Shown here: positions 4,848-40,336 of the stretch, one piece after another | How positions within the stretch are numbered: the first letter of the stretch is position 1 | How the letters are laid out: every line of letters begins with the position of its first letter | Virus record (IMG/VR): IMGVR_UViG_3300044716_000090 | Span: 40,813 to 104,812 of that record | Source: a virus | Taxonomy: Duplodnaviria; Heunggongvirae; Uroviricota; Caudoviricetes; Crassvirales | Strand: one strand, 5' to 3' | Length of the DNA: 64,000 nt | Position numbers and translations under genes: made by a program | Notes under the pieces: generated by a model | Seen by the model: only the letters and a program-made list of their open reading frames with translations | Databases searched by the model: none | Told to the model about the DNA's origin: nothing

Positions 4848-4855
4848 TACTATAA

Positions 4856-7429: not shown

Positions 7430-7515
7430 GATATTTGGATTAGCAAATGTAATTTAAATTATTATATGTACCAAGAACTATAACGATTTTTGGTAATCTG
7501 CTATAATTGAATTAG

Positions 7516-10500: not shown

Positions 10501-10713
10501 TTGTTCACCACCCATGTATGTACCCACCTGAGCTTGAGGAGGATTAGCAAAGTCAGTCAATTGTGTCAACTGTCTTTTTACCATAGCTTTACCCATAGCA
10601 GCTTTCTTCAAAGATTTACCATGCTTAGCCATAAATGCTTCTTCTGTAGGAAACTTCTTGTAGAATTCCTTTTCAGATTTAACTCCTGCGATCTTAAGGA
10701 TTTGATCTTTCAT
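7516..10713 (-). CDS. Large internal virion/ejection-like protein (1065 aa) with a Gly/Asn/Gln/Pro-rich low-complexity segment
   Basis: Long ORF. Residues about 115-235 are low complexity (NSNNKGGGNKD ... GGQGGAGGN). Sits among tail and giant-protein genes. Confidence 0.7.
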   Translation of the reverse strand: MKDQILKIAGVKSEKEFYKKFPTEEAFMAKHGKSLKKAAMGKAMVKRQLTQLTDFANPPQAQVGTYMGGEQDVTDGVAFADIYDNLDYQTTGMTNDMRNERAATEAQQQMAANSNNKGGGNKDIENIGKIANVAMMAMRKGGNVPKLQWGPNQPLMGGGPTGVPGSPANPSAGMYPIQPGGNPSNPQIQQGFAYSPGGQGGAGGNELLNTVASYAPGAEQLVGNFQKIQGAIRARQQSNQFVGVSGLTKEAAGTRGEISKRRYVRPEDMRFDQNQMNRPRGEGTNYLAEDGAMIGGNPTEIQNTYAPNSIYTDLEYTPLRNTNIKQFQAGGFADTFNNPIMAGVNIATDLTTAIMNAGTRKRNEQGFQNLGMSALQQGAQQIQNQNSGFMEEGGWVSHDWQPQVIATFGEHKLKDLLKPPHDAEMLRAGGHLKEYTPPSAAAMSTERPDFQMGGELQTHWGGYTEPVSENPYLPDGGITYMPRGNYHSQSDGKGNTGIGITFGDNPVEVERGEPMVKLEDGGTGEKNLMVLGALDIPNYALADLNKNAKGKKFKTYGTELTKNTTKQNKMVEKATDKLNDLEVLTPFDNLEMNSLQAQILGGNMKLKDIAVETQKLGTLQQAIHDASEEFGYSDVAKFNKDVKANRVQIGNSQPDKQSAQKGGKFKIKGSGKYPLDYSPLGQTENPIFTAGRYETEWKPKVEEAFSDPTSAKEIIKSIENYTGEGAEAAKKELAKAKTFEEKVKRAKYLATDSRVGVYHDIMNNIIDKLTPKKTETKPPVTEPSITDVISPIVPITTGTEEKGDVPKKYSWQDIYNTVLPYVRPSNQLELDPTQLSGEMFALSANQVEPVFAQSYKPMLSTPFDISLQDQLNANQADYNATQRMVGYNPAALSQLNAQKYAANSAVLGQQTRLNQAERARVYEANRNILNDAQLKNIGIYDQQMVRQSQALSNTKAQTQAALNSISDKYSRNRLENRTAGVYENLYNYRYDNRGRAINVNPLQRFNIPDVGSVDDLTENEKTRIKDYYEKIVSRDKTGNITGSKEKTGSTTVKRNGNIVKAIKNL

Positions 10714-13039: not shown

Positions 13040-16000
13040 TTACGAAAGACATTGTTCTACAGCTGTTCCACCAGATAAAGTACAATCTGGTGCAGATGTT
13101 GTTGTTGTTGTTGTGGTTGGTGGTACAGTAGTTGTGGTTGTAGTAGTTGGAGGTATAGTTGTAGTAGTAGTAGTAGTTGGACTTGGACAGTTAGTAAATC
13201 CTGTTGCTGTAATTGCATACAATGTACCACCTGGATCTGTTGTTATAGATCCTGTAACTACCCACGTAATACCTGGAGAAGTTACCCTATCATTAATTGC
13301 AAATGTTCCAAATGGATACTCTTGAGAGTATGATATAGAGCTATTTGCACAGTTTGTTATTTGGTACCACACAGACAATGCGGTAGTAGTGGTAGTTGTT
13401 GTAGGAGTAGCTCCACAAGCTGTTGTACAATCAGCGTTTGATGGAGCTCCATCTAAATCAACATCATATGTTGGTCCAGATACTACAGTTTGAATTTGGT
13501 ATGTAAATGAGCCCACCTTATAATATAAGCCATCAATTGTTGATAATGAAGTACTTGATCTACCCACTACATCAGGTAATACACGATTACAGTTATCATT
13601 ACAATCAAATTTTCTGAGCGAATAGTAATAATACGTTATTGCAGTAGTGGTAGTAGTTGTTGTTGGTACAGGTGGGATTGTAGTAGTAGTGGTTGTTGTA
13701 CTGCTACTAGAACTTGTAGTTGTTGTAGTGGTTGGTGAAACAGTTGTGGTAGTAGTAGTTGTACTAGAACTAGTTGTTGTAGTTGTAGTGGTTGGACACT
13801 GTTCTACAGCTGTACCAAATACACAACAAGGATCAATTGCTGTACCCTCTAATGTACAATCTACACATAAGTCAACTGCTGTACCCACTAATCTACAATC
13901 TATTGTTGTTGATGTGGTTGTTGTGGTTGTGCAATTAGGAAGCTCAGAGAAAGCAATTGCTTCTAGGTCACATCCACCATTCAATCCAGAATAGAAGAAG
14001 TTATTCTCAGCAATGTAGAAGTTAGGAATGTAGCTATGGAAGCTTATCCAACTCTTTGTATTCATGCTGAATGATAGAGTCCATGACTTATTACAGAAGT
14101 ATTCTTGGTCATAAACACTAACGGTTGTCTTCAATGTGCTACCACCTAGCACTCTTTCTACATAGAATTCCTTAGTTGTAGCATCGTATTTGATGTTCTT
14201 ACTATTAGGAATATAATCTAGTTTAGATATAATAACCCTGTCATACTTACTATCAAACACTCCATGTAAGCCAATACCATTGTAATGGTTATCTACATTT
14301 ACATTAGGGAAGTGACGTAAGATTTCAAATGCTAAATGGTCTGTAAAGAACTTATTAAGTCCTGAACCAAATGCTGACAAATCTGTAGCTTGGTTACCTG
14401 CAATTAAGAACACTTGTCCTCTCTTAGCATCTACAGTGATTTGTCCTTGAGGAATCTTTAACAACATCTTATTCTGACTTCCTACATATCCAAGGTCTGT
14501 TTCTGCAAAGTCAATTGGAGGAGCACTCTTGAATAATGTATCGTTTCCTAGGTAGGCAGCTTGTGGATTGCTAGTTTGAACTGTAAGCATTGTATTGTAT
14601 AACAATGACTTGTTCTCAAATCTAGCTAACACAGCTTTGTTCTGAATACCATCTAATGATACAAGATTACCAAAGTTTTGAGGGAAATCAAAGAATGATG
14701 TAGCTCTGTAGATTAACCAGCTATTCACTCTGTTATCAGCATACACATCCTGAGGATCTGAATAAACAGCTCTGAATGGATACTTAGTGTAACAAAGTTG
14801 TTCTGCCCAATCTGCAGGAAGATGTGTAAATGTATTCTCTTTGTTTTGTTTAGAATACGTTACATTATAATAATATGTATTATCAAAAGCAATAGGCACC
14901 ACTGATTCCTGTAACCAGTTATCAGGAATACCAGAGCTCACGTGTGGGAAGAAGTCACCTTCTAAACTATTAAATGCTTGACGTAAGTCTACATTTATAG
15001 AAGATTCACAATAGAAAGAAGGAATACCATAAGCAAATAGATACATCTTTCCATCATAGAAAGTTCTATTAGGATTTACTATAGCAGGTCTAAAAGGAGT
15101 TGCTCTACGTGGTTCAGGATTTTGGTTATTAGGACAGTCAAAGTTATGAGCCTTATAAGAAATCATATTCTTTAACACCTCACCAGTACTTAATGTATAA
15201 TCTTGTAACACTGATCTAGCTGAGTGCCAGTATTGTGGATAACCCACATTACCCACCTCATCATAGAATATATCACTATCATCAGGAGCATTCACCCTAT
15301 CATCAAAGAAGAAAGGTAATTTGGTCTTAAATGCAAACCTACTAATAAATGTATCTCCACCAAACATAGTGGCTGATTTAGGGGTAGAGAACATTAAATT
15401 GTTAATGTCAATACTTTCCTGGAATCCTGTATCAATTGTATCATAAGAGTATATCTGACCCCATTGGTTAACAAATATATTCTTTAATGATCCATAGTAA
15501 GAAACTACATTGATAGATTCATTCTTACTAGGTACAGAACAGTTGTTCTTTTGTGATATTGTAAATCTTGATGTATCAGAGATACCACTTACACCACCAA
15601 CTAATAAACTATTAGTTTGATTAGGGAATGGTAAAGGTATTACAGATGAACCATCTCTAGTGCCAATTGTTTTTAGGTATACAGATGATTCTCTATTATA
15701 GTTATTAAAATCATGTAAATCAGCTACAGACTGCACACCTGGTATAACGTATTGATACTTATCTAGTTGTCTTTGTTTGATTCCTAGATTGTTATCAATA
15801 GCTCCACTGTAATCATAACTAGCTATTGAGTTAAATGAATAAGCATAGTTTCTTCTGGTGATTCCATTTATGTAAATTGTTAGGTATGCCTGATATGCAG
15901 CAAACATAGCTGATGCACTAAATGGTGTTGTTATACGACCAATACCCTCACTAGATTGAAGAGCATCACGCTGAGCCTCTGCTGTAAGAAGCTTATACAT

Positions 16001-18367
16001 TGCGTTCTTCTTAACTTCTACAAAGTGAGCTATACCAGCACCAAACATTACATTCTCTAACTTAAGAATAGATCCTAAGAAAGGTTGTCCAAAAGAAGTT
16101 TCAGGTGAGTTAAATACCATTCTGTACTTAGACTCATCTGTAGCAAACGCATCTAATTTATCAGGATGGCAAAGTGAGTTCTTTGTTGCATTTATAGTGA
16201 TACTATAACTAGCTGTTCCAGATAAGTAGATAGGATTGGATACTGAGTTAACTTGTTGTAATCCATTACCAGTAACTGTAATTTGTCTAAATACAGTTGT
16301 TAATGGATCTTGGTATTGAAACACTGTACTATTAGCACTAGTAAGGTTATAAGTATTATAATTAACTACAGAGATTGTAGCTGCTCCACTTACAATTACA
16401 GGAGTGCTTAATGAACATATTTTATTTGTAGTTCCAAAAATTAACGTTTCAGTTTTTGTTGCATTTGAAAAACAATCTGTATATTGTACTACAGTTGCTG
16501 TAGTGGTAATTATATTATATGTAATACACTGATCAAGATAGCCATTATTATTCTCAAGAATAAACTCATCCTTATTAAGATCGTTATATGGATAGTTAGG
16601 GAAATAGAATTCTGTTTCTTCTCTTTTGTATTTACCTACGTTTCTAAGGATACCCTTAGCCACAATAGATTTGTTTGTACCTCTATCTCCTCTTACAATC
16701 TTAAATCCTGCAATGCTTTCTTTCTGTGCTTGTGTAAGATTAGATGAATACACCAAGTATGAAACTTGTTGAACATCAATCTTTACACCCATTGGAAATA
16801 CAGCATCACTTTGCATCACTGGAGAAAATCCTGACCCTAGTGTGTATGTAGGACTTTCAAATATAGGACTTACTAATACATCAGGAAACTTGTGATGTCT
16901 AATAGGTTGACCAGCAAGATTTCCCCATACATCTATGTTACATGGATAGGTGTCTGTTGATTCCCAATAAGCAAACTCACCATATTGGTAAGGTCCTTTG
17001 TATGATTGATCTGTTGTGTATCCAGGAGAAAACGATGTTACTGAACCTGTGTTATAAATCTTCCAATAAGGAGCACTTGTTCCTTCTCCAATAAAATCAG
17101 GATTAGTACTAGGAACATCTGGTTGAGAACCTTCGTTAGCACTAATCATTCTACCTGGAATGTGGAAACCATCTGTTTGCTTACCATTACTTAATAGAAA
17201 CACTATCTCAAAAGCATACACTTCATCTCTTAGATAACCTCTAAGGTTTGTAGCATTTAGCTCATCAGCATAAGTTTCTGTACTAGGGATTCTATATGTT
17301 TCCCATTTAAGATCAATTTGGCTAGCAATCTGTTGATAGTTAATTCTATCAATAGAAGTTAAGTTATCCCAGATAAGGATATCTTGTGCAGTGGTTAAGT
17401 CTTGAGCTACCTCATAGTAAGGATATTTCTCAAATATGTCAGCAATTGTAAGACGAATCTGTGTAACATTCTGTCCTGTATAAGTTATCTCTCTAGTGTT
17501 ATCTTCTATAAAATATGTTCCAATCAACTCTACAGAAGATATACTGTTTACTGTTTTAATTACAGCAATATTAAAATAATCAAATTTTCCAGTGGTATCT
17601 AAATTAGCAACACTAACTATAATAGATTTACCCACTTGATAGTTAAAATCTAGTGTGGTAACTTGTGTGTCAGCAATAGGTGTAGGGTTGGTAATAGAAT
17701 AGTAAGATGTAAATGGATTACCAGCAGCATCACAATATTGGATGGCAAACTGATATGTACCAGCAGTGAGGTCACCACCATTTCTAACATCAGTTACATC
17801 TAATGAAGGAATGCTAAAATTAGGCTGAACGTTTAATTGATTGCAATCAAGTTCAGTGGTGTAAATAGGATTACACAAATCAGCATTAGGAGCTAGTTTA
17901 TATGGAACATTATTTAGGTCTATATATCTTCTAGGATTAAGACCATCTGTCCAATACACCTCTGTAGTGCAGTTTGTAATCTTGTGAACAGCTTTAAGAA
18001 TAGGATAGTTTATATCAAAGTTTAAACAAGGTGCACTAACCAATATACGGTAGATGCAATCATTGTTATCCATATATCCAATGTGGCTATCTCCCGTTTC
18101 AGGATTAACTAGAAAGAATATGTGTTTGTTCTTTTCAACAATGAAATGAGTTCCTATTAAATGGAAGTTTGTAGGAAAGTTTAGACATAGCTCGTTCCCT
18201 GGCTCATTCTGATAGTTTACAGAATCTGAGTCAAAGTTCTCAACAGATGCATTTAATGCATAAGTTAGCTTACCTTTAGGAACCTGATTTACAGATTGAT
18301 CTAAATTTAAGCCAGCAGTAGCATTGTTATACTCTTGTTTAATATTAGTTGTTTCTTCTCCAGCCAT
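13040..18367 (-). CDS. Giant tail fibre/adhesin-like protein (1775 aa) with a C-terminal region of poly-Thr/Ser linkers and repeated Cys-bracketed CxLxGTA[VI]xxC motifs
   Basis: ORF in track. The C-terminal 330 aa contain several T7-T10 tracts and the motifs DCRLVGTAVDLC, DCTLEGTAIDPC, CVFGTAVEQC and DCTLSGGTAVEQC. The DNA repeat gttctacagctgt occurs near 13048 and 13805. Confidence 0.75.
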   Translation of the reverse strand: MAGEETTNIKQEYNNATAGLNLDQSVNQVPKGKLTYALNASVENFDSDSVNYQNEPGNELCLNFPTNFHLIGTHFIVEKNKHIFFLVNPETGDSHIGYMDNNDCIYRILVSAPCLNFDINYPILKAVHKITNCTTEVYWTDGLNPRRYIDLNNVPYKLAPNADLCNPIYTTELDCNQLNVQPNFSIPSLDVTDVRNGGDLTAGTYQFAIQYCDAAGNPFTSYYSITNPTPIADTQVTTLDFNYQVGKSIIVSVANLDTTGKFDYFNIAVIKTVNSISSVELIGTYFIEDNTREITYTGQNVTQIRLTIADIFEKYPYYEVAQDLTTAQDILIWDNLTSIDRINYQQIASQIDLKWETYRIPSTETYADELNATNLRGYLRDEVYAFEIVFLLSNGKQTDGFHIPGRMISANEGSQPDVPSTNPDFIGEGTSAPYWKIYNTGSVTSFSPGYTTDQSYKGPYQYGEFAYWESTDTYPCNIDVWGNLAGQPIRHHKFPDVLVSPIFESPTYTLGSGFSPVMQSDAVFPMGVKIDVQQVSYLVYSSNLTQAQKESIAGFKIVRGDRGTNKSIVAKGILRNVGKYKREETEFYFPNYPYNDLNKDEFILENNNGYLDQCITYNIITTTATVVQYTDCFSNATKTETLIFGTTNKICSLSTPVIVSGAATISVVNYNTYNLTSANSTVFQYQDPLTTVFRQITVTGNGLQQVNSVSNPIYLSGTASYSITINATKNSLCHPDKLDAFATDESKYRMVFNSPETSFGQPFLGSILKLENVMFGAGIAHFVEVKKNAMYKLLTAEAQRDALQSSEGIGRITTPFSASAMFAAYQAYLTIYINGITRRNYAYSFNSIASYDYSGAIDNNLGIKQRQLDKYQYVIPGVQSVADLHDFNNYNRESSVYLKTIGTRDGSSVIPLPFPNQTNSLLVGGVSGISDTSRFTISQKNNCSVPSKNESINVVSYYGSLKNIFVNQWGQIYSYDTIDTGFQESIDINNLMFSTPKSATMFGGDTFISRFAFKTKLPFFFDDRVNAPDDSDIFYDEVGNVGYPQYWHSARSVLQDYTLSTGEVLKNMISYKAHNFDCPNNQNPEPRRATPFRPAIVNPNRTFYDGKMYLFAYGIPSFYCESSINVDLRQAFNSLEGDFFPHVSSGIPDNWLQESVVPIAFDNTYYYNVTYSKQNKENTFTHLPADWAEQLCYTKYPFRAVYSDPQDVYADNRVNSWLIYRATSFFDFPQNFGNLVSLDGIQNKAVLARFENKSLLYNTMLTVQTSNPQAAYLGNDTLFKSAPPIDFAETDLGYVGSQNKMLLKIPQGQITVDAKRGQVFLIAGNQATDLSAFGSGLNKFFTDHLAFEILRHFPNVNVDNHYNGIGLHGVFDSKYDRVIISKLDYIPNSKNIKYDATTKEFYVERVLGGSTLKTTVSVYDQEYFCNKSWTLSFSMNTKSWISFHSYIPNFYIAENNFFYSGLNGGCDLEAIAFSELPNCTTTTTTSTTIDCRLVGTAVDLCVDCTLEGTAIDPCCVFGTAVEQCPTTTTTTTSSSTTTTTTTVSPTTTTTTSSSSSTTTTTTTIPPVPTTTTTTTAITYYYYSLRKFDCNDNCNRVLPDVVGRSSTSLSTIDGLYYKVGSFTYQIQTVVSGPTYDVDLDGAPSNADCTTACGATPTTTTTTTALSVWYQITNCANSSISYSQEYPFGTFAINDRVTSPGITWVVTGSITTDPGGTLYAITATGFTNCPSPTTTTTTTIPPTTTTTTTVPPTTTTTTTSAPDCTLSGGTAVEQCLS

Positions 18368-19750: not shown

Positions 19751-20475
19751 TAGTTAGCATTAGTTGTGTTTGGTGCTTGACCATCCACCCCATCTTGCGT
19801 TTGATCTGTCTTCAGTCTGAAGTACGTAGATAATAGCTTTTGAGATGTAAGTTCTAGCACTTGCTTTTCTAAATATCCAGGGCAGCCATATTCTTTATCT
19901 AGAGGATTTTTACAATAGTCTTCTAGATTAATATTATCACTGCAGCAGCACTCAGCAAACATGATCTCATTAGGAACATCTTCTTCAAAGAAAGCAGCAA
20001 TTCTAATAGCTTGTAACAAAGGGTTATTTACGTATAAGTAACCATTTGAAATCCAATAGTATTGTTCGTTCTTGATGATTGGAAGTTTTAAGAGATTGAT
20101 ATATCTATTGATAGTAATCTCTTTCAACTTTTTGCCTTGTCCACTCATTGCGTTTATTGAATAAACACCTTGAATGATATATTGGTAATTACCCTCGCAT
20201 ATACGAGGAAGTTTAAATTTTGTTCTAGCAACTGTGCAAGGATCCACATAATCACAACATTCAGAAATAGGAACTTCTACCAATTCCAAACAAGGAATGG
20301 TAGTAAACAAAGTATCAGTAGCCCAAAGCTTTCTGAGATTTGTTTCACGTTTTACTAATAAAAGTGTGTTGTTCTTAATCTCAGATGCCACCACTCTATC
20401 AGTGATGAGGTTATCTGTTGATAACAATTTGTGCATTGCACGCACATCTGAAACTAATTTCCTTAAAGTTGCCAT
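19750..20475 (-). CDS. Hypothetical protein (241 aa)
   Basis: ORF in track. Shares start/stop junctions with both neighbours. Confidence 0.55.
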   Translation of the reverse strand: MATLRKLVSDVRAMHKLLSTDNLITDRVVASEIKNNTLLLVKRETNLRKLWATDTLFTTIPCLELVEVPISECCDYVDPCTVARTKFKLPRICEGNYQYIIQGVYSINAMSGQGKKLKEITINRYINLLKLPIIKNEQYYWISNGYLYVNNPLLQAIRIAAFFEEDVPNEIMFAECCCSDNINLEDYCKNPLDKEYGCPGYLEKQVLELTSQKLLSTYFRLKTDQTQDGVDGQAPNTTNAN

Positions 20476-21725
20476 TATAAATACTGTTTGAATATATTTG
20501 TCATTCCCTCAGCTTGATCGATTAAGAATGCTGTCACCTCACCTTTAGACATCGTGTGACCCATCTTATCATCCCAAAGGCTCTTAGCATTTGAGAAAGC
20601 TGGAATTTGGTAAAATTTAATACCGTTAAAGTCATGACTCACTTCGTGATGTTTATCTCCTGTGAATATATAGAAGTTATGGTGGAATGACCATTGGTCT
20701 CTATATTCTATTGGGAATAGTGCTGCAAGTTTAGCTGGCTTAATCGCATCCCCATGATTGAACATTAATGCTGAATTGCCGTAACTTACATACTTTCTAT
20801 ATTTAGGAGAATCATCAATTGTAAGTCTGTCTGTATTTCTAAAATATGTTTGTAACCAATTAACCATATGCCATCCTACAAACTCATCATGATTACCAGC
20901 TACATACACCACATTAACATGTTTAGCATGCTGTAATAACATTGTAATCATTAACACCTCATGGTTACATATATACTCAAATGAAGTGTGGTATGTATGT
21001 GTATTCTGTTGAGGGGTTCCTTTTGTAGTTGCATTAGTGTATTCACTATTAAACTCATCAGAGCCAATAATGTATGTAATCTCTTCTAGGTTGTTTGAAA
21101 GTTGAGCCTGTGTAGCTATCACATCCACCTTATACATAATCTTAGCCATTCTACTTGTTACATCATTATCACCATCTACATCCCATTTGTTTAAATGAGA
21201 GTCTTGTTTGTTGATAATTAACATACCGTTTGGTCTCTCTGGAAAGAACTTAGGACTCATAACTTCCTGACTAACAGGCTGATATGAAGCTAAAAAGTCT
21301 ACGAAGCTATCTTGAAATACTTGCTCTGTAGACTTCTTTCCTAACCATGCTTTAACTTGCCAATGGGGATTAGTTCCATTCCCCCAGAAGTTCTGTACAT
21401 ATTTAGTTATTTCCCACTTATCTGTGTCTATGTGACACTTCTCAATTAGTTCATCTAAGCTTTTAACTTCTTCGCTAAAGTTAGCTACTACCTCTCCTGT
21501 ACCCTTGCTTATATCCTCTGTAAACTTGATGATTACATTCTCTAGTTCAGCAATGTAGTTTCCAACCTCAGCATCTTCCTCACTCTTCTCTTGATTTCTT
21601 AACTCATTTAATAACTCATCCACCTCTAGTTCTGTAATTCCAAGCTTATCAGCATAGAACTTTTTACTCTTTTTCCAATGTAGGATCTCTTCTAGCTGTT
21701 GCAGCAAGGATTGATTTTCAGGCAT
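20475..21725 (-). CDS. Calcineurin-like metallophosphoesterase (416 aa)
   Basis: Contains VVYVAGNHDEF, the GNH[DE] signature of the metallophosphatase fold. An upstream His/Asp-rich stretch is consistent with metal-binding motifs. First gene after an intrinsic terminator and an AT-rich gap. Confidence 0.65.
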   Translation of the reverse strand: MPENQSLLQQLEEILHWKKSKKFYADKLGITELEVDELLNELRNQEKSEEDAEVGNYIAELENVIIKFTEDISKGTGEVVANFSEEVKSLDELIEKCHIDTDKWEITKYVQNFWGNGTNPHWQVKAWLGKKSTEQVFQDSFVDFLASYQPVSQEVMSPKFFPERPNGMLIINKQDSHLNKWDVDGDNDVTSRMAKIMYKVDVIATQAQLSNNLEEITYIIGSDEFNSEYTNATTKGTPQQNTHTYHTSFEYICNHEVLMITMLLQHAKHVNVVYVAGNHDEFVGWHMVNWLQTYFRNTDRLTIDDSPKYRKYVSYGNSALMFNHGDAIKPAKLAALFPIEYRDQWSFHHNFYIFTGDKHHEVSHDFNGIKFYQIPAFSNAKSLWDDKMGHTMSKGEVTAFLIDQAEGMTNIFKQYL

Positions 21726-28755: not shown

Positions 28756-30309
28756 TTAGAATTGTGGTATTTCTTCGATTAATACTGTACGTGATAAATC
28801 TTCAATGAATACATCACAACGGTCTTTCATCCAAATCTCATAACCAGGGAATTTGTTTGCAGAACTCATACCTTGAGACTTAGCAAAACCTAAGTGGTGA
28901 CGAGTACCATCGATATAACCCCAAGTCATTGAAGGAGCACCCTTCATACGTACTTCACGGATGTTGTTTACCATTGAACCATCGCTCATTGGAGATACAT
29001 CAAACACCATGAATACAGGAGTAGATTTTTTGTTCTGACCGAATTCTAAGTTAGTTTGAGGAAGGTCTAATTCTTTTAAGTGAATTAGTTCAACACGACC
29101 TGTTTCACGTGTAACCATTGCATCGAATGCAAAGTTGTAAGTGATGTGTTGACCTTCTCCTTGCATGTAGCGATTACCAGAATCAGCCATGAAAGTTAAA
29201 CCAGAATTAAGTGCATCATTTTTAAGAGCTTGTTGGAACACATCAAAGCCAGCTTCGTTTGTGTACATTTTAACTCTACGATCCTTAACATCAACACGTC
29301 TGTAGAATAAGTCACCAAACACTGAACGAATCAAGTTTGCAGTGAACTCACCACGGTTGTATTGTACTAAGTTACCGTTATTACGCATTCTGTGGTAAAC
29401 ACCAGCAGATGTACGCTTTAATTCTTGCTTAGAACCATTAGTCTTCACGGTACCAGGCTTAGCCCAGATCATACGCTTAACTTTTAATTCTAACATAGAC
29501 TTACGCATCCAGAACTCAATAAATGGTTCCCATTTAACATCGTTACGAGTTAAAGGTAATTGGTTACGTCTTTGTGGAGCATATACTAAGATGTCAAGAG
29601 GCTTACCAGAAGCATCACGCATCATTTTATCATCAGCCCACTCAGTGATTTTGTGCTCATAACCATATGCAGAACCTAAAGATTCAAACATAGTGATTTG
29701 CTCACCTAAACGAGGAAGACCTAATAAGTCTTGATCGAATTCACCGATAGCAGCATCAACTAATTCTAGTTCGATACCAGTTTGTAAGAAAGTAGCACTT
29801 ACGTAATCTACTTGAGGGTTGTCAGTCACAAGAGTGAATGTGTACAAGAAACCAGCGTTCCAAGGTTGAGGATCCTTGATAACGTAGAAACGAGGACCAT
29901 ACTGACGAGTACCTACAGAAACAATAGCGTTCTTAGAAAACTCATTTGTGTCAATTACAAGAGAAAATTCTTGACCATCGATACCTGGCTTATCTAAAGC
30001 TAGAGTGGTATCAGGGATGTCAATGATTTTTGGAAACTTGTAAGGAACTTGTACTTGCCACTTCCAAGCATCACTGTTATTATCGATATAGTAAGGAGTA
30101 GACTTGTTGATCATGTCTAGGAAATCATTACTGTAAAGAGAACTCTGAGTATACAAACTGATAATTTTCTTATCATAATCTGCTGGCTCAGTTGAGTGAA
30201 AACTCTCCAAGTGGTTAGAATCTGTTAACTTACCTACTGCACGCTTGTCCATAGAAGCAACACGAGCATACGTAAATCCAGTTAAACCTGGGATTGTTTG
30301 AATTGCCAT
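28756..30309 (-). CDS. Major capsid protein, putative (517 aa)
   Basis: Assigned by position (terminase, portal, scaffold, then this gene) and size. Followed by a strong hairpin. No motif proof available by eye. Confidence 0.55.
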   Translation of the reverse strand: MAIQTIPGLTGFTYARVASMDKRAVGKLTDSNHLESFHSTEPADYDKKIISLYTQSSLYSNDFLDMINKSTPYYIDNNSDAWKWQVQVPYKFPKIIDIPDTTLALDKPGIDGQEFSLVIDTNEFSKNAIVSVGTRQYGPRFYVIKDPQPWNAGFLYTFTLVTDNPQVDYVSATFLQTGIELELVDAAIGEFDQDLLGLPRLGEQITMFESLGSAYGYEHKITEWADDKMMRDASGKPLDILVYAPQRRNQLPLTRNDVKWEPFIEFWMRKSMLELKVKRMIWAKPGTVKTNGSKQELKRTSAGVYHRMRNNGNLVQYNRGEFTANLIRSVFGDLFYRRVDVKDRRVKMYTNEAGFDVFQQALKNDALNSGLTFMADSGNRYMQGEGQHITYNFAFDAMVTRETGRVELIHLKELDLPQTNLEFGQNKKSTPVFMVFDVSPMSDGSMVNNIREVRMKGAPSMTWGYIDGTRHHLGFAKSQGMSSANKFPGYEIWMKDRCDVFIEDLSRTVLIEEIPQF

Positions 30310-30343: not shown

Positions 30344-31609
30344 TTATTGAAACCATGAAGTTGTAGGCTTAGGCTTATTTCCTGTTTTTGTAGAACTTTT
30401 GCTAACTTGTCTAGCAACTTCACCAAACAATTCATTTGACTTTTTGGTGATACCAGTCTTTTGTATTGTAGATAGAGTAGGGTCCTTTTCTAAAATCTTT
30501 AATAAAAGTCCAAGCTTAACCTTTGTTGCATGGTTTTCTGGACGCTTAAGTTCTAGAATAGTCTTGTCAAAATCTGTGAGAGTCTCACCAGATGCTGTCT
30601 TATACTTATCTACTAACAGGAAATCTTGTAGTTCACCAGCCAATTTAGGGTTCAGAGGAATACCGTCAAACTCTTTTGCTTTTAGTTTTTCTTGTAATAC
30701 TGACTGAACGTTCTGAACATATTGTTGTTTAACAGCAGCTTGCTGTTGTAACCTTTTTTCGTTTTCTTGCTCCATTTGTTGGAGCTTTGCTGCTTCCTTC
30801 TTAACCAACACTTTGTGGTGTTTAGTGGCAACAGTTTCCAAATCACCGTAATTTTTAAGTCTTTCAACTTCTGTTGTAACATCCTCAGGATCAAATCCTT
30901 GATCAGCTAAAGCTTGTTTAATTACTGCAACTTGGTTAGATTCGTCTGCTAAGTCCATCTCAGCAAAACTCTTTATATTATTATAAGTACCGAAGTACTC
31001 TTTAGGATCTACTCCTTTTACAAATATGGCATCAAATGCTTGTTGATAGTCTTCACCAAACTGACCAATGAAGTTGTTTACCACCTCGATAGCTCCTTTC
31101 TTCTTCTCAGCGTTAAAACGCTCTAGGAATTCTTCAGGAGTTGAAATAGCAACATCTTCTTCATCTTCATCATTGGTAAATACACCAAGTTTGAAAAGAT
31201 CTTTAGATAGAGATGTAAATGGACTAGTTGGCTCATCACCATCTTCTTCATTGTCATCATCTGTATCTTCAGGAGCTTTTGCTTTAGGAGCTGGAGCAGG
31301 AGAATCATTTTCTTCATCTTCTTCTTCCTCATCATCTCCACCTAGTAAAAAGTCCTGTAAAGACTTTGTCTTATCTTCTTTATCCTCATCATTTTCTTCT
31401 GTAACTGTAGCAGCAGGAGATTGTGTCTTCTTAGCAGGTTTAGCCGCAGGAGCAGGTTCATCTTTAATATCTTGGATATCATCAGGATTGGTAGTAGAAG
31501 TCTCAGGAGCAAATAAGTCACTTAAAAGCTCTTGGTTTCCCATGCCCATATCCATAGTATCTTGAATACTAAAGTTTCCCATTGACGGGTTGTCTAGATT
31601 TTCAGCCAT
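30344..31609 (-). CDS. Scaffolding protein, putative (421 aa); acidic disordered N-terminal half, helical C-terminal half
   Basis: Long D/E/P/A-rich tracts (DDEEEEDEENDSPAPAPKAKAPEDTDDDNEEDGDE), then a K/E/Q-rich coiled-coil-like C-terminus. Sits directly upstream of the capsid gene. Confidence 0.55.
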   Translation of the reverse strand: MAENLDNPSMGNFSIQDTMDMGMGNQELLSDLFAPETSTTNPDDIQDIKDEPAPAAKPAKKTQSPAATVTEENDEDKEDKTKSLQDFLLGGDDEEEEDEENDSPAPAPKAKAPEDTDDDNEEDGDEPTSPFTSLSKDLFKLGVFTNDEDEEDVAISTPEEFLERFNAEKKKGAIEVVNNFIGQFGEDYQQAFDAIFVKGVDPKEYFGTYNNIKSFAEMDLADESNQVAVIKQALADQGFDPEDVTTEVERLKNYGDLETVATKHHKVLVKKEAAKLQQMEQENEKRLQQQAAVKQQYVQNVQSVLQEKLKAKEFDGIPLNPKLAGELQDFLLVDKYKTASGETLTDFDKTILELKRPENHATKVKLGLLLKILEKDPTLSTIQKTGITKKSNELFGEVARQVSKSSTKTGNKPKPTTSWFQ

Positions 31610-31730
31610 ATGTAGTTTATTTTATTATTGGTTTTCAGGTGTAAAAGTATATTATTATAAGTTAATACCAAAGAGATACAACACTATATGAACCATTATT
31701 CACGATAATATAGCATTAATGTAAATCACT

Positions 31731-32261
31731 CTAATCAAGATTGTTTGTAATCGTGTCATTTATCAACCTAAAACTCTTGATTGGAGCTAGGTCAGTAAGT
31801 GTAACTTGTTGAATCTCAACCCCCCACTTCCTTGCTTCCACTCTAACTTTCTTTGTCAGGGTGTTATCAAGTTCCGAATCTGTACATTCTTCCAGGGACA
31901 TAGACATGATTACGTTTTTTATGACACTTTGTGACATGTCAGCTATTGCATCTTGGGCATCAAATACTTCTAATAAGAATGTTTTCACATCTGATATCTT
32001 GTATTTGATTACACCCTTGACAACAATGTTCTGTCTATCACTAGTATACAAAGATTGTGCTGGAAGGCTTAATGTTGTAATAACGACATGTTGATCAATC
32101 ACCTCATCTACAAATGGTATCTTTGGATGGAATCCAGGTTTTAACACTTTTTTAAATTTACCAAATCTTAGAAGTACAGCTTCCTCATAATCCCTGATAA
32201 TAATACCAGGGAGTACGTCTGAGCCAAATTGTAACACAACATCAATCAGCCTATCTAACAT
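31731..32261 (-). CDS. SPFH/band-7 (stomatin/prohibitin-like) domain protein (176 aa)
   Basis: IIRDYEEAVLLRFGKFKKVLKPGFHPKIPFVDEVIDQHVVITTLSLPAQSLYTSDRQNIVVKGVIKYKISD matches the band-7 core (E.AVV.RFGK, L.PGLHF.IPFID.V, T.D.N.V.VD.VV.YRI.D). Lies between portal and scaffold. Confidence 0.7.
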   Translation of the reverse strand: MLDRLIDVVLQFGSDVLPGIIIRDYEEAVLLRFGKFKKVLKPGFHPKIPFVDEVIDQHVVITTLSLPAQSLYTSDRQNIVVKGVIKYKISDVKTFLLEVFDAQDAIADMSQSVIKNVIMSMSLEECTDSELDNTLTKKVRVEARKWGVEIQQVTLTDLAPIKSFRLINDTITNNLD

Positions 32262-32263
32262 AA

Positions 32264-34849
32264 TTACTTAGTTTTCTTACTCGCTCTATTCTTAGCATTC
32301 TCTTTAGCAATAGCTAAATCATTTGCTTGGTTCTCTCTAGCCACCTTTAGTTTCTCTTTTTCTATTTCTAGTTTCTGAGCAGCTAGGTTATTCTTAGATT
32401 GAATATCACTCATCTTTGTCTCATATTCTTTAACAGCTTTTGATTGTTCAAATGCTAACTTATTGATTTCCAATACATCAGGAGCTCCAGACATATCTAA
32501 ATCTGATAAAGGACCACTTTTTGATTCAGCAGCAATGAGAGCAATCTCCTTCTTATTGATCCTATCAAGTTCAGCTTGGTAATCATCATGAGCCAATTGT
32601 TTCTCTTGAGCTTCTTGAGCTTGTTGGATTTGAGCCATGGTATTTTGCTGTTGAACTTCCATTTGTTGCTGTTGCATATCCAACTGTTGTTGTTGCATAG
32701 CATCTTGCTTATCCTTAAGAGTCTTGAACACTTTCTTCATCTTACGTACAGAATCAGTGCTGTAAAGTTCAATGATGTCATGTAATGAACCACCATTTTG
32801 TATAACAGCTTGAGACAATCCACGTAATTCGTTAAACATCTTCTGATCCTCAGGACGATTAGTTAAGAACACCTTGAGGTCACGGAATCTAAGGTCAGAT
32901 CCATTCACCTGTACAAACGCTGATTCTCCATCAGAAGTAATGTATGATAGGGTGGATTGCGGTTTACTAGATTCTACATATAAAGCAGCATCAATGATAG
33001 CTTGGTACAATTGACCAAGAACATACTCGTGAGCTACGAATAAAGGTTCTGTTTGAGAATAAGATTGTGTAAGAGCTGCATTTGTACCTGTAGCAGATTC
33101 ACTAGCAGATATAGATCCCATTCTTTGTCTAGACATACCCACTAGTTCCCAACATTCAGTTTTTAACTGCATGGCTAATGTGTAACGAGATTGAATCTCC
33201 TGCGTACGTGTAAGGTCAATATCTCTAAACTGATTAAAGCTAGAAGGACTCTTTAAGTTCTCAGGACTATCATCAATAAAGACAACCCCTCTGTTACGAG
33301 CTTCTAGTTCCCATATGTCTAATGCATCTTGAGCATCACCATCCTTAGGAACAGGAATGTGTCTAATAGATGTTAAATACACCTTACCTACTTCCTTCTC
33401 AAGAAGTGTGTAAAGCTGATTCATACATACATTATATAACACTTGGAAAGGTTTCATAAGATCTACTAGAGACTTAGCCTCTGTATTCTTAACCTCGTGT
33501 ACCAATCCAATGATAGGACAATAACTTAATAATTTGTATGGTTTGATATGGTAGATGTCTGGACCAATCTTGATACCTTGGTACCATTGGTTAATCCAAC
33601 CCCATTCTAGAGAAACTTCTGTAGGAATAGTCTTGCTCTTATAGTTCTCATCTACAAGCATAGATTGTTCGTTACCCATTTCATCTAAATAGATAAGTTT
33701 ACCAATCTTCTTCTTAGAGATCCAATAGGCTCTAACAACTACATACTTATAACCAAATGAGCTAACGTTAGATGTTAATCCCAAGAAGTCTTTAAGTCCA
33801 TCATCGTTCTCTTTCATTTCTGATTCAATAATCATTCTTGTTTGTAGAACAAGAGGATCGTATGTATCGTATTGTACTGAATCAGTACCAGGTATTGCAT
33901 CTGGATTACCAAGATTAGATTCACGTACATTGATAAGACCATAGTCTTGTAGTGAACTTCTTAGGTGATCAATCTCGTCTTTGGTTAAATCAGGAATAGC
34001 TTCAATGATTTCTGATAGTTCCATAACCTGTACAATACCAGCAGCATATGCTCCTTGTGCTCTACCTGTAGGATCAGAAACATATTTTCTATCTGGTGTA
34101 GTGAGGAACCAAGTGTTCTTAGGGTTAGCCACCTCAATGTTAAATCCAAGCTTAGAGTTGTCCTCATAGATATGATAGAACTCTCTAGCTGAAATTAACA
34201 TATCTCTGAAGGCATCTTCTGATTTCTCTTTAAGATTGAACTCAGCTTTCTGACATGTAAGAATATGGTTAGCCCATTTCTCAGCAACAGATGTGTAGCT
34301 ATCTAGCTCATCTTTCACCTGATCCATTGTCATTTGCTCAAGCTCTTCTTCCTCTAGTTCAGCCCCTTGTAATTCAGCCTTTTGTAATATCTTTTGCTTA
34401 GCTTGGCTAATAACATATTCCTGTAGAATACCAGTCTTGAATTCCAATTCTTCAGATTGACTATCAGCATCAAATGCCTTTACACGGAAAGCATCTGGTC
34501 TTTTAGAGATTTCTCCAACCAACTCGTTAAGAGGTGTGGTGATGATAGAATACATCTTTACATATGAAGGAAGATTTAAGTTAGCTTCAAGAGTTTGTGT
34601 AAAGCTACTTACAACAGGCTCTTGGTAAAAATCCTCCATACGCAAAATACCCTTGACAAGATCATAGTTCTTAACAAAGGTGTCTCTATTCTTCACATAC
34701 TCAGCGTATGACTTATTAGCAAAATAGTCCATTGTGTTTTTAATCCAACTCTCATCTTGCTTTTCCTTCTCAGTTTTAAACTGATCTGGAAATATATTTA
34801 AATATGCATACCTAATCGTAGCATCTTTTGTATACCGTATAATTGCCAT
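32264..34849 (-). CDS. Portal protein, putative (861 aa)
   Basis: Immediately downstream of the large terminase, sharing its stop/start position at 34849. Size fits large podovirus portals. C-terminal Q/E/K-rich tail. Confidence 0.55.
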   Translation of the reverse strand: MAIIRYTKDATIRYAYLNIFPDQFKTEKEKQDESWIKNTMDYFANKSYAEYVKNRDTFVKNYDLVKGILRMEDFYQEPVVSSFTQTLEANLNLPSYVKMYSIITTPLNELVGEISKRPDAFRVKAFDADSQSEELEFKTGILQEYVISQAKQKILQKAELQGAELEEEELEQMTMDQVKDELDSYTSVAEKWANHILTCQKAEFNLKEKSEDAFRDMLISAREFYHIYEDNSKLGFNIEVANPKNTWFLTTPDRKYVSDPTGRAQGAYAAGIVQVMELSEIIEAIPDLTKDEIDHLRSSLQDYGLINVRESNLGNPDAIPGTDSVQYDTYDPLVLQTRMIIESEMKENDDGLKDFLGLTSNVSSFGYKYVVVRAYWISKKKIGKLIYLDEMGNEQSMLVDENYKSKTIPTEVSLEWGWINQWYQGIKIGPDIYHIKPYKLLSYCPIIGLVHEVKNTEAKSLVDLMKPFQVLYNVCMNQLYTLLEKEVGKVYLTSIRHIPVPKDGDAQDALDIWELEARNRGVVFIDDSPENLKSPSSFNQFRDIDLTRTQEIQSRYTLAMQLKTECWELVGMSRQRMGSISASESATGTNAALTQSYSQTEPLFVAHEYVLGQLYQAIIDAALYVESSKPQSTLSYITSDGESAFVQVNGSDLRFRDLKVFLTNRPEDQKMFNELRGLSQAVIQNGGSLHDIIELYSTDSVRKMKKVFKTLKDKQDAMQQQQLDMQQQQMEVQQQNTMAQIQQAQEAQEKQLAHDDYQAELDRINKKEIALIAAESKSGPLSDLDMSGAPDVLEINKLAFEQSKAVKEYETKMSDIQSKNNLAAQKLEIEKEKLKVARENQANDLAIAKENAKNRASKKTK

Positions 34850-36876
34850 TATGTAAAAAGTTTACGTTTTCTTTTATTAAATATTCCTCTTGATGTAGAA
34901 AATAAAGGATTCTTTGGTCCTCCTGAATACATTGCTTTCACTCTATCATCACTAGACCCACCAATCTTTCCAAAGATAGGATCCATCTTAAGTGCTTGAG
35001 CGATAGCTAGTTCTGCAGCAATGATACGGTCAAAGTTACCTGAATCATTATACTGAATAACTTCTTCAAGTAGCACAGGATCAAATATCTTACTCACACC
35101 CAACACTTCTCTTATAGTTTCACCAGCTTCATTAGTCTCCTTATATATCGTTCCTTCTAGATACTTCTTCAAGCAGTTGTGAAGATAGTCAATTATCTTC
35201 TGACTTGAACGATGTATTCCATACTCACGTTTAACAGTGGTATTTGGTACAATCTCCATAAGCCACTGAGGTTGCTTCTCTAGATAGTGAGCATCCCCTT
35301 TGGCTTTCATATATTCTATAAACGATATATCATCATTCTCACACAAGGTTCTAGCATTGTAATACTTGATAAGTAGACGAGCTTGTTCTTCCCAAGTTTC
35401 CTTCTTATCAGGTCTAGCACAATACGAAGCTACGAACATATCTTGATATTTCTCACCTGTAAGCTCATGCATTCTTTTATAAATGTAAACAGATCCTAAT
35501 GAGCTTGAATACGCAGATTGTCCTTGTCTGTAAGGATCGACTCCTGCTACATATAATCCATATGGAGGATTATCAATAGGGAATTCGTATATGACTACAG
35601 GAGCATTCTTTTGATCACTATTCTTTAGAGGGAAGTTTGATATAGGAAGTTTATCCGTAAACTCATGACTTATCTTCTCTCCATCATTGAATAATATAAT
35701 AGGTGTACCTGTTCTTTCTTGTTGTAATAGTTTACTCTTCTGTCTTTTAGCAGCTTCAATGTCAAAGATGTTTGTATCCTCATTAAGGAATATATCATCC
35801 ACCTCTTGTGGGTAGTACATCTTTTCTTTTAGATAGGCAACTCTATCACCAGCCTTCTTAAGTCTTTCTAAGTTTTGGACAGTGATTTGATCAGCCTTCT
35901 CTTGGTCACTTACCAACATCTCAATCTTATGTAAGTCGGATGTGTAAGGTTCATTTAAGAAAGCTCCAAGTGTACTTTTATCTTTGGCCTCCATTCTATA
36001 TTTATTAGAAATAAAGAGTCCATGTGTACGAGCTGTGTCTTTCTCATTATTATATGTAAGGAAGTTGAAGTTGTCTACATCAAACATTAAGCTCTTTGCA
36101 TCCATAAATTTCTTCATGTCACCACCAGTCCCAGTAAGAATAGGGCTACATCCCCACCCATATGGTGTAGTGAAACCAGGAATAGCCGCCTGTAAACCTC
36201 TAAGAAAATTTCCTTTACCGATCTCATCTATAATTAGTTTACGTGGTTTTGTACCTGCGATAGCTTCCTCATTATTACCTTCATCAAGGTTACGAATTAG
36301 GATGGAAGAAAAAGGGATACGTTCTCCAGACTTAGTCTTGATACCAAGTGTAACTTGGTTTTTCCAGTTATCCTCAATTCTCTGCCATCTCCAATATTCT
36401 GGAATGAAGTTAAGCCCCTTATCAATCTTATCTGTGATAAGCTTAATATCTGGAGCGTTCAAACCAGCAATAATGTTTTGTGAGTTTTCATCAAATGTTG
36501 CACCCCATGCAATATAAGATGCCTCAATAACGGACTTAGCAAAACGTCTAATACCTAGAATGACTAATCCCTTTCTTTCTTTTTGGGCTCTGTCAATTTC
36601 GTTTGTTACTAGCCACTCGTTATCACGTAATAAAGGATTAGCATATTTCTGTGCAATCCTTCCATACTCATCAATAATATCCACCTCTGTATGCCAGATG
36701 TTTAGGTGCCAATATAAAAAGGGGTTGATATATACACCCCCCATCATAGCACCATTTAAACATAGGTCTTTATGAAAATCATAGAATAGTTTATACTCCT
36801 CAGATGCTCTGTCAGGCAGGCGCTTCTGATTGATAAACCAGTCTTTGTAATCTATACTCTGTACGTGTACACTCAT
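34849..36876 (-). CDS. Terminase large subunit, putative (675 aa)
   Basis: Deviant Walker A LVILGIRRFAKS (GxRRxxKS type, as in TerL ATPases). Size and position immediately before the portal gene. Confidence 0.65.
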   Translation of the reverse strand: MSVHVQSIDYKDWFINQKRLPDRASEEYKLFYDFHKDLCLNGAMMGGVYINPFLYWHLNIWHTEVDIIDEYGRIAQKYANPLLRDNEWLVTNEIDRAQKERKGLVILGIRRFAKSVIEASYIAWGATFDENSQNIIAGLNAPDIKLITDKIDKGLNFIPEYWRWQRIEDNWKNQVTLGIKTKSGERIPFSSILIRNLDEGNNEEAIAGTKPRKLIIDEIGKGNFLRGLQAAIPGFTTPYGWGCSPILTGTGGDMKKFMDAKSLMFDVDNFNFLTYNNEKDTARTHGLFISNKYRMEAKDKSTLGAFLNEPYTSDLHKIEMLVSDQEKADQITVQNLERLKKAGDRVAYLKEKMYYPQEVDDIFLNEDTNIFDIEAAKRQKSKLLQQERTGTPIILFNDGEKISHEFTDKLPISNFPLKNSDQKNAPVVIYEFPIDNPPYGLYVAGVDPYRQGQSAYSSSLGSVYIYKRMHELTGEKYQDMFVASYCARPDKKETWEEQARLLIKYYNARTLCENDDISFIEYMKAKGDAHYLEKQPQWLMEIVPNTTVKREYGIHRSSQKIIDYLHNCLKKYLEGTIYKETNEAGETIREVLGVSKIFDPVLLEEVIQYNDSGNFDRIIAAELAIAQALKMDPIFGKIGGSSDDRVKAMYSGGPKNPLFSTSRGIFNKRKRKLFT

Positions 36877-38716: not shown

Positions 38717-38795
38717 ATATAATTAACGCAAAGGTAGTTGAATTTCAATCATCTACAAATAACTTAAATAGTTATTTATAACACCTAATGCTATA

Positions 38796-39065
38796 TTATG
38801 CATCATTTTCTTCATTCTCAATCCAAAACACAATACATACATTAATGAAAAAGAAACCTAGACGTAATTCTCTCTCTATGTTACCGTCATCTAATGTGAA
38901 TTCTGTATAGGATAAACCTATAAGGAAATAAGGACTCCTGAATAAGTTAATCTCCAATGCAAAATCTATCGAGTTATATCTGGAGAAACCATGTACTAGG
39001 GATGTGACAATCAGTAATGTCAGTATTATATATATCATGCTATTAGTTTTTAACCCACCCTCCAC
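38796..39065 (-). CDS. Small hydrophobic (membrane) protein, tentative (89 aa)
   Basis: MIYIILTLLIVTSLVHGF N-terminal TM-like segment and a second hydrophobic stretch. Lies in the control region. Confidence 0.3.
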   Translation of the reverse strand: MEGGLKTNSMIYIILTLLIVTSLVHGFSRYNSIDFALEINLFRSPYFLIGLSYTEFTLDDGNIERELRLGFFFINVCIVFWIENEENDA

Positions 39066-40150: not shown

Positions 40151-40336
40151 TATTATATGTATGGGTGGGCAATTATTGCATTAGGGTTGGGGATATTACG
40201 AGATAACTCATTGATTTACAATATATTCTGTGTGAATATATGAGTTGCTGTGTAACCTCTCATGGATAAATACACCTTTTTTGATAACAGCTACATGTAA
40301 AACATAATACAATACATATAGCATTAAATAACAATT

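Follow-up and report, generated by a model that had tools for sequence, protein, structure and literature searches.

A short SPFH-core protein between the portal and capsid genes of a crAss-like phage: a possible host-directed accessory protein

Introduction

Why a phage should carry a stomatin-like gene in the midst of its head genes is not obvious. Such a gene lies in the stretch of DNA analyzed here (the window, 64,000 nucleotides of the Crassvirales record IMGVR_UViG_3300044716_000090), directly behind the portal gene. The original prediction, made from the sequence alone, had placed its SPFH/band-7 product in the slot usually occupied by a prohead protease and had considered an assembly chaperone or cage, a part in membrane-tethered assembly, or a packaged protein. 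SPFH ORFs of phages have been on record since 2006 (PMC1524935), and authors writing in 2026 described the reason for their presence in phages as unclear (PMC13239085). Here, the architecture of the protein, termed mini-SPFH, the neighbourhood of its gene and its distribution among phages were used to weigh these possibilities.

The mini-SPFH Gene and Its Neighbours

The ORF was found exactly where it had been predicted, with the expected length and all three peptides quoted in the prediction. It is arranged with the following head genes.

34849..36876, minus strand: TerL gene, upstream of the portal gene (phrog_6681, E 4.7e-86)
32264..34849, minus strand: portal protein gene (phrog_6547, E 2.8e-99; Pfam P22_portal, E 8.6e-12)
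31731..32261, minus strand: mini-SPFH gene, 176 aa, ATG start
30344..31609, minus strand: gene of a 421-aa acidic protein, gp31 homologue and putative scaffold (BLASTP, phrog_16294)
28756..30309, minus strand: crAss-type major capsid protein (MCP) gene (Pfam Crass_capsid, E 5.6e-29; phrog_11589, E 1.3e-33)

According to the ORF coordinates the TerL stop overlaps the portal start at 34849. The portal stop and the SPFH start (32261/32264) had likewise been described as overlapping. This is ruled out by the sequence of the junction, TAA-TT-ATG, in which the portal stop (32264-32266) and the SPFH start codon (32259-32261) are separated by a gap of 2 nt. The predicted placement of the gene between the portal gene and the putative scaffold gene was correct; its tight packing against the acidic gene was not, as a conserved intergenic region of 121 nt separates the two. 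Pairwise dN/dS values of 0.007-0.14 were obtained between close relatives at dS values of 0.14-0.45. The mini-SPFH gene is therefore a real and constrained gene under strong purifying selection.

Architecture of the mini-SPFH Protein

The assignment to the band-7 family was substantiated by Pfam, in which Band_7 (PF01145) matched residues 21-163 with an E-value of 4.9e-27 and 95.5 bits against a gathering cut-off of 23.6. A profile of the mini-SPFH family detected chains of stomatin, QmcA, HflK and HflC in the PDB at 1e-12 to 6e-9. Structure prediction with AF2 from a diverse alignment of 35 sequences yielded a model with a pLDDT of 89.3; it superseded an unusable model (pLDDT 53) from a shallow alignment of 18 close homologues. 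From the N-terminus, the model consists of a helix (residues 2-16), the beta region of SPFH1, the alpha/beta region of SPFH2, which extends to residue 160, and a short helix of low confidence (residues 165-174). The protein possesses the SPFH1 plus SPFH2 alpha/beta fold. The parts of the protein correspond to the following positions of the window.

32214..32258, minus strand: N-terminal amphipathic helix, residues 2-16 (AF2; hydropathy and hydrophobic moment)
31782..32207, minus strand: SPFH1 plus SPFH2 core, residues 19-160 (AF2 secondary structure, pLDDT above 90)
31734..31781, minus strand: short C-terminal tail, residues 161-176, which replaces the coiled-coil wall and cap and holds R165

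R165 is nearly invariant and conserved in at least 90% of the family members. When the model was compared with the PDB using Foldseek, human stomatin ranked first (E 2.7e-14, TM 0.77 normalised to the query). HflK/C, QmcA, prohibitin, erlin, flotillin and major vault protein followed; normalised to the length of the target, the TM-scores amount to only 0.45-0.55. Among viral structures, a 173-aa "HflK" from an uncultured phage matched best, with a TM of 0.84.

The likeness to stomatin is confined to the core. It covers stomatin residues ~28-178 and ends where the stomatin coiled coil begins; the alignments to stomatin terminate at about residue 178-189 of chains of 256-308 aa. The mini-SPFH chain itself ends 16 residues past SPFH2 and contains neither a coiled-coil (CC1/CC2) wall nor a C-terminal cap. 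Its N-terminal ~20 residues sit where HflC and stomatin carry their transmembrane anchor. By a 19-residue hydrophobicity test, which is crude, this segment reached a Kyte-Doolittle value of only 1.40 in its best window at a hydrophobic moment of 0.64, and it contains three Asp and one Arg. The transmembrane segment of HflC, used as a control, gave a hydropathy of 3.36 and a moment of 0.06. By this 19-residue hydropathy the transmembrane helix or hairpin anchor of cage-forming SPFH proteins is missing from mini-SPFH. Neither a signal peptide nor a lipobox was detected in the protein. The lipoprotein identity implied by the label of phrog_200 was rejected, as the protein has no Cys and no lipobox.

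In the solved SPFH cages the coiled-coil region forms a wall that encloses a protease, and anchor, wall and cap together build the enclosure. Since all three are absent here, formation of a canonical ring or cage by mini-SPFH is unlikely, and the cage of the original prediction loses its canonical form. Mini-SPFH is an SPFH core minus anchor, coiled-coil wall and cap.

Head Module of the Phage and the Lack of a Prohead Protease

The structural module of the window contains a Crass_capsid MCP, CrAss_Ring_1, 2 and 3/4, portal, TerL, a gp31-like gene and an HU/IHF-like gene. Consequently, the phage is crAss-like (Crassvirales sensu lato). A megablast search of the head module against GenBank phages returned no match. 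The nearest relative in GenBank is the cultured Leptolyngbya phage Lbo-JY46, the portal and MCP of which are 28% and 26% identical to those of the window.

The 421-aa acidic protein shows weak homology to gp31 of crAss001 (BLASTP E 3e-6 over 263 aa) and also matched a 407-aa protein of Lbo-JY46 (E 0.004). In crAss001 the gp31 gene immediately precedes the MCP gene. We regard the acidic protein as a putative scaffold. The main text of the crAss001 structural atlas does not name gp31 (PMC10172136), which is compatible with a scaffold role and no proof of it.

No protease domain was found by Pfam and PHROGs in the late-region ORFs scanned, at a profile sensitivity below which remote homologues would escape. 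The types considered were ClpP/S14, S49, HK97 S78/U35 and T4 gp21/herpesvirus, and the scan included four very large ORFs. This confirms the earlier impression that the module has no recognisable prohead protease. It also covers the 421-aa protein and the nearby genes, in which a protease would have made the SPFH gene incidental. The structural atlas of crAss001 mentions no scaffold, protease or cleavage (PMC10172136), and a review of the Crassvirales mentions no protease and states that capsid assembly is not yet established (PMC10136315). Because neither source mentions one, the lack of a recognisable prohead protease appears to be normal for the crAss-like group.

These observations bear on the idea that mini-SPFH regulates a maturation protease acting on scaffold or capsid, in the style of SPFH-NfeD or HflKC-FtsH. 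Cellular SPFH proteins do pair with NfeD or FtsH proteases, and HflK is the best NCBIfam match of mini-SPFH. However, the late ORFs scanned contain neither a protease nor an NfeD domain, the protein lacks the coiled-coil region, and no conserved partner gene accompanies it across its contexts. For NfeD the result comprises the gene neighbours and the late ORFs scanned by Pfam/PHROGs. Such a regulator is extremely improbable.

Two further features of the late region were noted. A 416-aa ORF on the minus strand (20475-21725), flanked by the CrAss ring-2 gene and by other late genes, matched phrog_704, "DNA repair exonuclease" (E 1.8e-45), an unexpected family within a tail gene block. The four very large late ORFs lie on the minus strand at 3-4871, 4856-7429, 7516-10713 and 13040-18367 and encode at least 1615, 857, 1065 and 1775 aa, respectively. 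None had a Pfam match, and PHROGs, against which two of them were scanned, gave none for those two. They could represent cargo or virion RNA polymerase proteins of the crassvirus kind.

The Portal-to-gp31 Interval

A comparison of crassviruses revealed different contents at the position of the mini-SPFH gene. In crAss001 the interval between the portal gene and the gp31-like plus MCP pair holds ten genes (gp21-gp30) with head fibre, tailspikes/hydrolases and the lysis cassette gp27-gp30; this content, including holin, lysis regulators and endolysin, is unrelated to mini-SPFH. The interval contains three hypothetical genes in cr272_1, the SPFH gene alone in the window clade, and nothing in Lbo-JY46, although the latter has the same head gene order as the window. 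Therefore, the interval is a variable insertion site for accessory cargo and not a fixed functional position, and it is no "protease slot" in this lineage. With no protease mentioned in the crAss001 atlas or the review either, this part of the original prediction is not supported.

Within the clade, the arrangement is strict. The order TerL-portal-SPFH-acidic-MCP was kept in all 80 IMG/VR loci of a first scan, wherever the genes were on the contig, and in 76 of the 78 loci of a later scan. The synteny of portal, SPFH and scaffold genes that had been suggested for a check thus held in about 160 loci, with the SPFH gene usually a few nt past the portal stop. It does not extend to Lbo-JY46, and tblastn with the SPFH protein (E<=1e-3) gave no match in those crAss-like GenBank records to which the portal is similar. 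SPFH proteins of the clade are 68-99% identical, compared to ~82% for the portal and ~95% for the MCP; mini-SPFH diverges faster, at 68-80% against these values in the first scan.

Several loci deviated in detail. In L050 (6873-7081) and L088 (7575-8001), the SPFH start follows the end of the portal match only after 200-425 nt, where 2-20 nt are usual; a portal C-terminus that has diverged, or a small insertion, may account for this. In L066 the TerL gene (5380-7401) is 57% identical to the window copy and the adjacent portal gene (7404-9992) 83%; the boundary looks like a recombination junction. When translated with table 11, the annotated portal-to-MCP coding sequences of cr272_1 (L082, 9460-12357) contain in-frame stops, which would fit the reassignment of stop codons known from some crassviruses.

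The Intergenic Region and Transcription

The intergenic region behind the mini-SPFH gene contains blocks that are invariant in the clade, in the order 15-mer TTAATGCTATATTAT, TCTTTG and, 19 nt on, TAnnTTTTAC. Two elements were located in the window.

31705..31719, minus strand: invariant 15-mer TTAATGCTATATTAT, directly past the SPFH stop, identical in 19/19 aligned loci
31642..31672, minus strand: TTTG-N19-TACTTTTA, a promoter-like motif of the Bacteroidota type upstream of the acidic and MCP genes, conserved in clade loci

Near-copies of the 15-mer occur elsewhere in the window, in two further intergenic regions (38785-38796, plus strand; 40316-40327, minus strand), and it may be a regulator-binding site. 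The pattern TTTG-N17-21-TAnnTTT[GA], which we take to match the Bacteroidota -33/-7 promoter consensus, was found at four minus-strand sites (39100-39068, 38759-38729, 31672-31642 and 21785-21754), 13-35 nt upstream of minus-strand gene starts. Its presence at four gene starts suggests a Bacteroidota host, and the sites suggest boundaries of late transcription units. A generic scan for sigma-70 promoters and terminators performed no better than on shuffled sequences, and RNA structure in the conserved region between the SPFH and acidic genes was unsupported (0 covarying pairs).

To judge from the promoter-like motif, the gp31-like and MCP genes probably have a strong promoter of their own, which would make SPFH the last gene of a unit after TerL and portal. 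The end of a unit would be a typical spot for the insertion of an accessory gene, like the operon ends of the lineages L084, L147 and L174 described below.

The Wider Family and Its Gene Contexts

When 1.84 billion representatives (50% clustering) were searched exhaustively with the family profile, 6,490 matches were obtained, roughly 1,200 of them below 1e-10 and 94 below 1e-30. Among the 150 best of these 6,490, nearly all are 168-190 aa long and aligned end to end. IMG/VR scans with distant members or a sub-alignment mostly returned the same clade; a profile search aimed at members outside it was likewise dominated by the clade and added three useful long contigs. Two scans of species-representative genomes found no close relatives, only one weak match in Phycisphaerae. 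Outside the window clade the following gene contexts were obtained.

L173, distant 126-kb crAss-like contig: portal, homing endonuclease, 89-aa ORF, SPFH, gp31-like, MCP
L175, third crAss-like lineage: exonuclease, SPFH, 197-aa ORF, TerL, portal, gp31-like, MCP
L091, T7-like podovirus with 67% GC: SPFH directly past TerL
L084: SPFH past a GH108 endolysin and small ORFs, ahead of a strand switch
L147: SPFH past DUF5675, two small hydrophobic (TM) ORFs and a metallophosphoesterase; strand switch next
L174: SPFH near a phage lysozyme, then terminator-like hairpins; the contig has an integrase-like gene and a Por_Secre_tail protein
L089: SPFH adjoins primase
L083: SPFH adjoins GTP cyclohydrolase I
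L178/L179: SPFH in a divergently transcribed early region of small ORFs, in an integrase-bearing temperate phage with SU10-type capsid
L177, L092 and L093: SPFH among unannotated ORFs

These contexts are heterogeneous. In a small sample of ~12 independent contexts that was not systematically drawn, cell-wall hydrolases adjoin mini-SPFH in three, and TerL or portal adjacency was found in four independent lineages (the window clade, L173, L175 and L091). A few family members have gained hydrophobic anchors, P0146 at the C-terminus and P0210 within an inserted segment; this suggests that the family works at the membrane.

The portal gene of L173 is flanked by genes of the homing-endonuclease type, Endonuclease_7 before it (5061-5807) and NUMOD1 after it (9000-9713); the latter lies together with the SPFH gene in the portal-to-gp31 interval. 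Beside mini-SPFH, L147 carries a weak PAPS-reductase-like gene (9016-9804, minus strand), and the GTP cyclohydrolase I gene of L083 lies at 727-1365. SPFH, GTP cyclohydrolase I and an APS-reductase-family protein have been listed together as "host metabolism" genes of a Xanthomonas phage (PMC13384950). Their co-occurrence may be a coincidence or a link to a DNA-modification gene set.

A distribution like that of a moron, with horizontal mobility, a gene placed last in transcription units and its occurrence in temperate-like phages, would suit superinfection exclusion or counter-defence at the membrane, in which mini-SPFH would keep competing phages from entering or neutralise a membrane-associated host defence that possibly contains SPFH proteins itself. 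Against this, PADLOC-DB defence models gave zero matches for the window protein and four diverse relatives, no defence or anti-defence genes were seen among the neighbours, and late expression in a lytic crAss-like phage would be odd timing for exclusion. We consider this reading unlikely.

The contexts also bear on a packaged virion protein, ejected as cargo for the next host. The window gene does lie in the structural/late block, and crassviruses are known to package cargo proteins (PMC10136315). However, the known crAss cargo is large and partly unfolded, whereas mini-SPFH is a compact folded domain of 20 kDa; moreover, the family occurs in early and replication contexts of other phages, and the crAss001 locus has no homologue. 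A packaged protein is thus very unlikely.

Horizontal Transfer

In the three crAss-like lineages the SPFH proteins are 48-56% identical to the window copy. The corresponding values for the core genes are 22-26% for the MCP (with only 76 residues aligned in the third lineage), 26-27% for the portal and 24-28% for TerL. Between lineages SPFH is thus more conserved than the core genes, yet within the clade it diverges faster, which points to transfer and not to slow evolution. By an identity matrix and an NJ tree without bootstrap, the nearest neighbour of the window clade is the non-crAss copy of L147 (~60%), and the L175 copy pairs with the non-crAss copy of L174 (64-66%). This interleaving of crAss and non-crAss copies indicates that the family has been exchanged horizontally between unrelated phages. 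Lbo-JY46, which does not have the gene, is closer to L173 (portal 42%, MCP 36%) than the window is.

Capsid assembly factors usually co-evolve with portal and capsid. A gene family that hops between phages with unrelated head genes therefore disfavours a capsid-specific assembly role, and the assembly chaperone of the original prediction is argued against in this form. A head-assembly factor might nevertheless work from the membrane. In T4, gp40 helps the gp20 portal to start proheads on the membrane; by analogy of role, not by homology, an inner-membrane mini-SPFH could recruit or nucleate the portal dodecamer. Several positions of the gene would fit: 2 nt past the portal gene and downstream of TerL and portal in the window, unchanged throughout the clade and in the very distant crAss-like L173, and near TerL in L175 and L091. 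On the other side, the gene is shared among unrelated heads (Crass_capsid; SU10_MCP with SPP1_portal; T7-like) and also lies near lysis, replication or early genes. Furthermore, it is absent (tblastn) from Lbo-JY46 and the portal-matching crAss-like GenBank records, which have the same core head genes, and it evolves faster than portal and MCP in the clade. The recurrence beside TerL or portal in four lineages keeps membrane-tethered assembly alive, as a distinctly unlikely reading.

A wider variant is a portable membrane platform that phages attach to their genes for packaging and the head. Bound to the inner membrane and to portal or terminase, it would bring the initiation of procapsids or the packaging of DNA to the membrane, as a transferable equivalent of the gp40/gp20 membrane initiation step of T4, and it would explain the TerL/portal adjacency in four unrelated lineages. 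In a related alternative the protein, devoid of the coiled coil, would act as a poison subunit: inserted into the SPFH cages of the host, it would open them and so release or disable the protease inside. These readings are distinctly unlikely as well.

Proposed Role

The reading that we prefer, with a rough probability of 55%, is that mini-SPFH is a host-directed peripheral-membrane accessory protein and neither a capsid-specific assembly factor nor a substitute for a prohead protease. The protein would be made late in infection. As it has no signal peptide or lipobox, it should stay in the cytoplasm, where its amphipathic helix and SPFH1 may bind the inner leaflet of the host membrane. The target, as a guess, would be a host component common to many bacteria, such as microdomains, SPFH-protease assemblies, or membrane integrity and lysis timing. 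The membrane and lysis theme is favoured by the anchors gained in some relatives, by the hydrolase-adjacent contexts together with the Kayvirus protein MbpS (see below), and by the lysis cassette of crAss001 in the same interval. The strict synteny with the portal gene in about 160 clade loci counts against the accessory reading. So does the adjacency to TerL or portal in four lineages, which may exceed what a purely random placement would produce.

The analysis gives no support to the idea that an SPFH protein takes the place of a prohead protease. The locus cautions against reading a function from a "slot" defined in head modules of the HK97 or T4 type, and it adds one more crassvirus example to the portal-to-gp31 interval as a hot spot for accessory genes. 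The mini-SPFH family is abundant in uncultured phages, strongly constrained and horizontally mobile. With a single domain of 20 kDa it is a tractable candidate for learning how an isolated SPFH core acts at a bacterial membrane.

Comparison with Known SPFH Systems

Stomatin, QmcA (YbbK) and the archaeal stomatin PH1511 comprise ~250-310 aa, in contrast to the 176 aa of mini-SPFH. Unlike them, mini-SPFH has no transmembrane segment or hairpin, no coiled coil, no cap and no adjacent NfeD gene.

The best NCBIfam match was HflK (TIGR01933, E 3.2e-21), with 75.9 bits against an equivalog cut-off of 159.4 and coverage of model positions 3-148 of 261 only. HflC (TIGR01932) was matched with 49.8 bits against a cut-off of 134.4, again with partial coverage of the model. 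Thus, the protein falls below the cut-offs for both equivalogs; the automatic JGI annotation of clade members reads "regulator of protease activity HflC". The SPFH domains of HflK/C are periplasmic in E. coli, whereas mini-SPFH, having no signal or transmembrane segment, should stay cytoplasmic.

Other phage SPFH proteins are MbpS of Kayvirus, ORFs of the T4-like phages 44RR, Aeh1 and RB43, the "SPFH lipoproteins" of Schitoviridae and Vi01-like phages, and phrog_200. In contrast to mini-SPFH they comprise ~250-380 aa and have membrane anchors or lipoprotein signals; the phrog_200 profile (379 positions) is matched by mini-SPFH at positions 105-258 only. They share with mini-SPFH an SPFH domain encoded by a phage. 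For crAss and SPFH together, the literature search yielded one 2026 preprint with a cd03408 match from BACPHLIP, given with no location or analysis. A published description of a short, anchorless, coiled-coil-less phage SPFH family or of its mobility was not found. MbpS is an SPFH protein within the lysis module (PMC7150955), and several mini-SPFH genes similarly lie near lysis genes. Short, anchorless and devoid of a coiled coil, mini-SPFH represents a distinct architecture among the SPFH proteins of phages.
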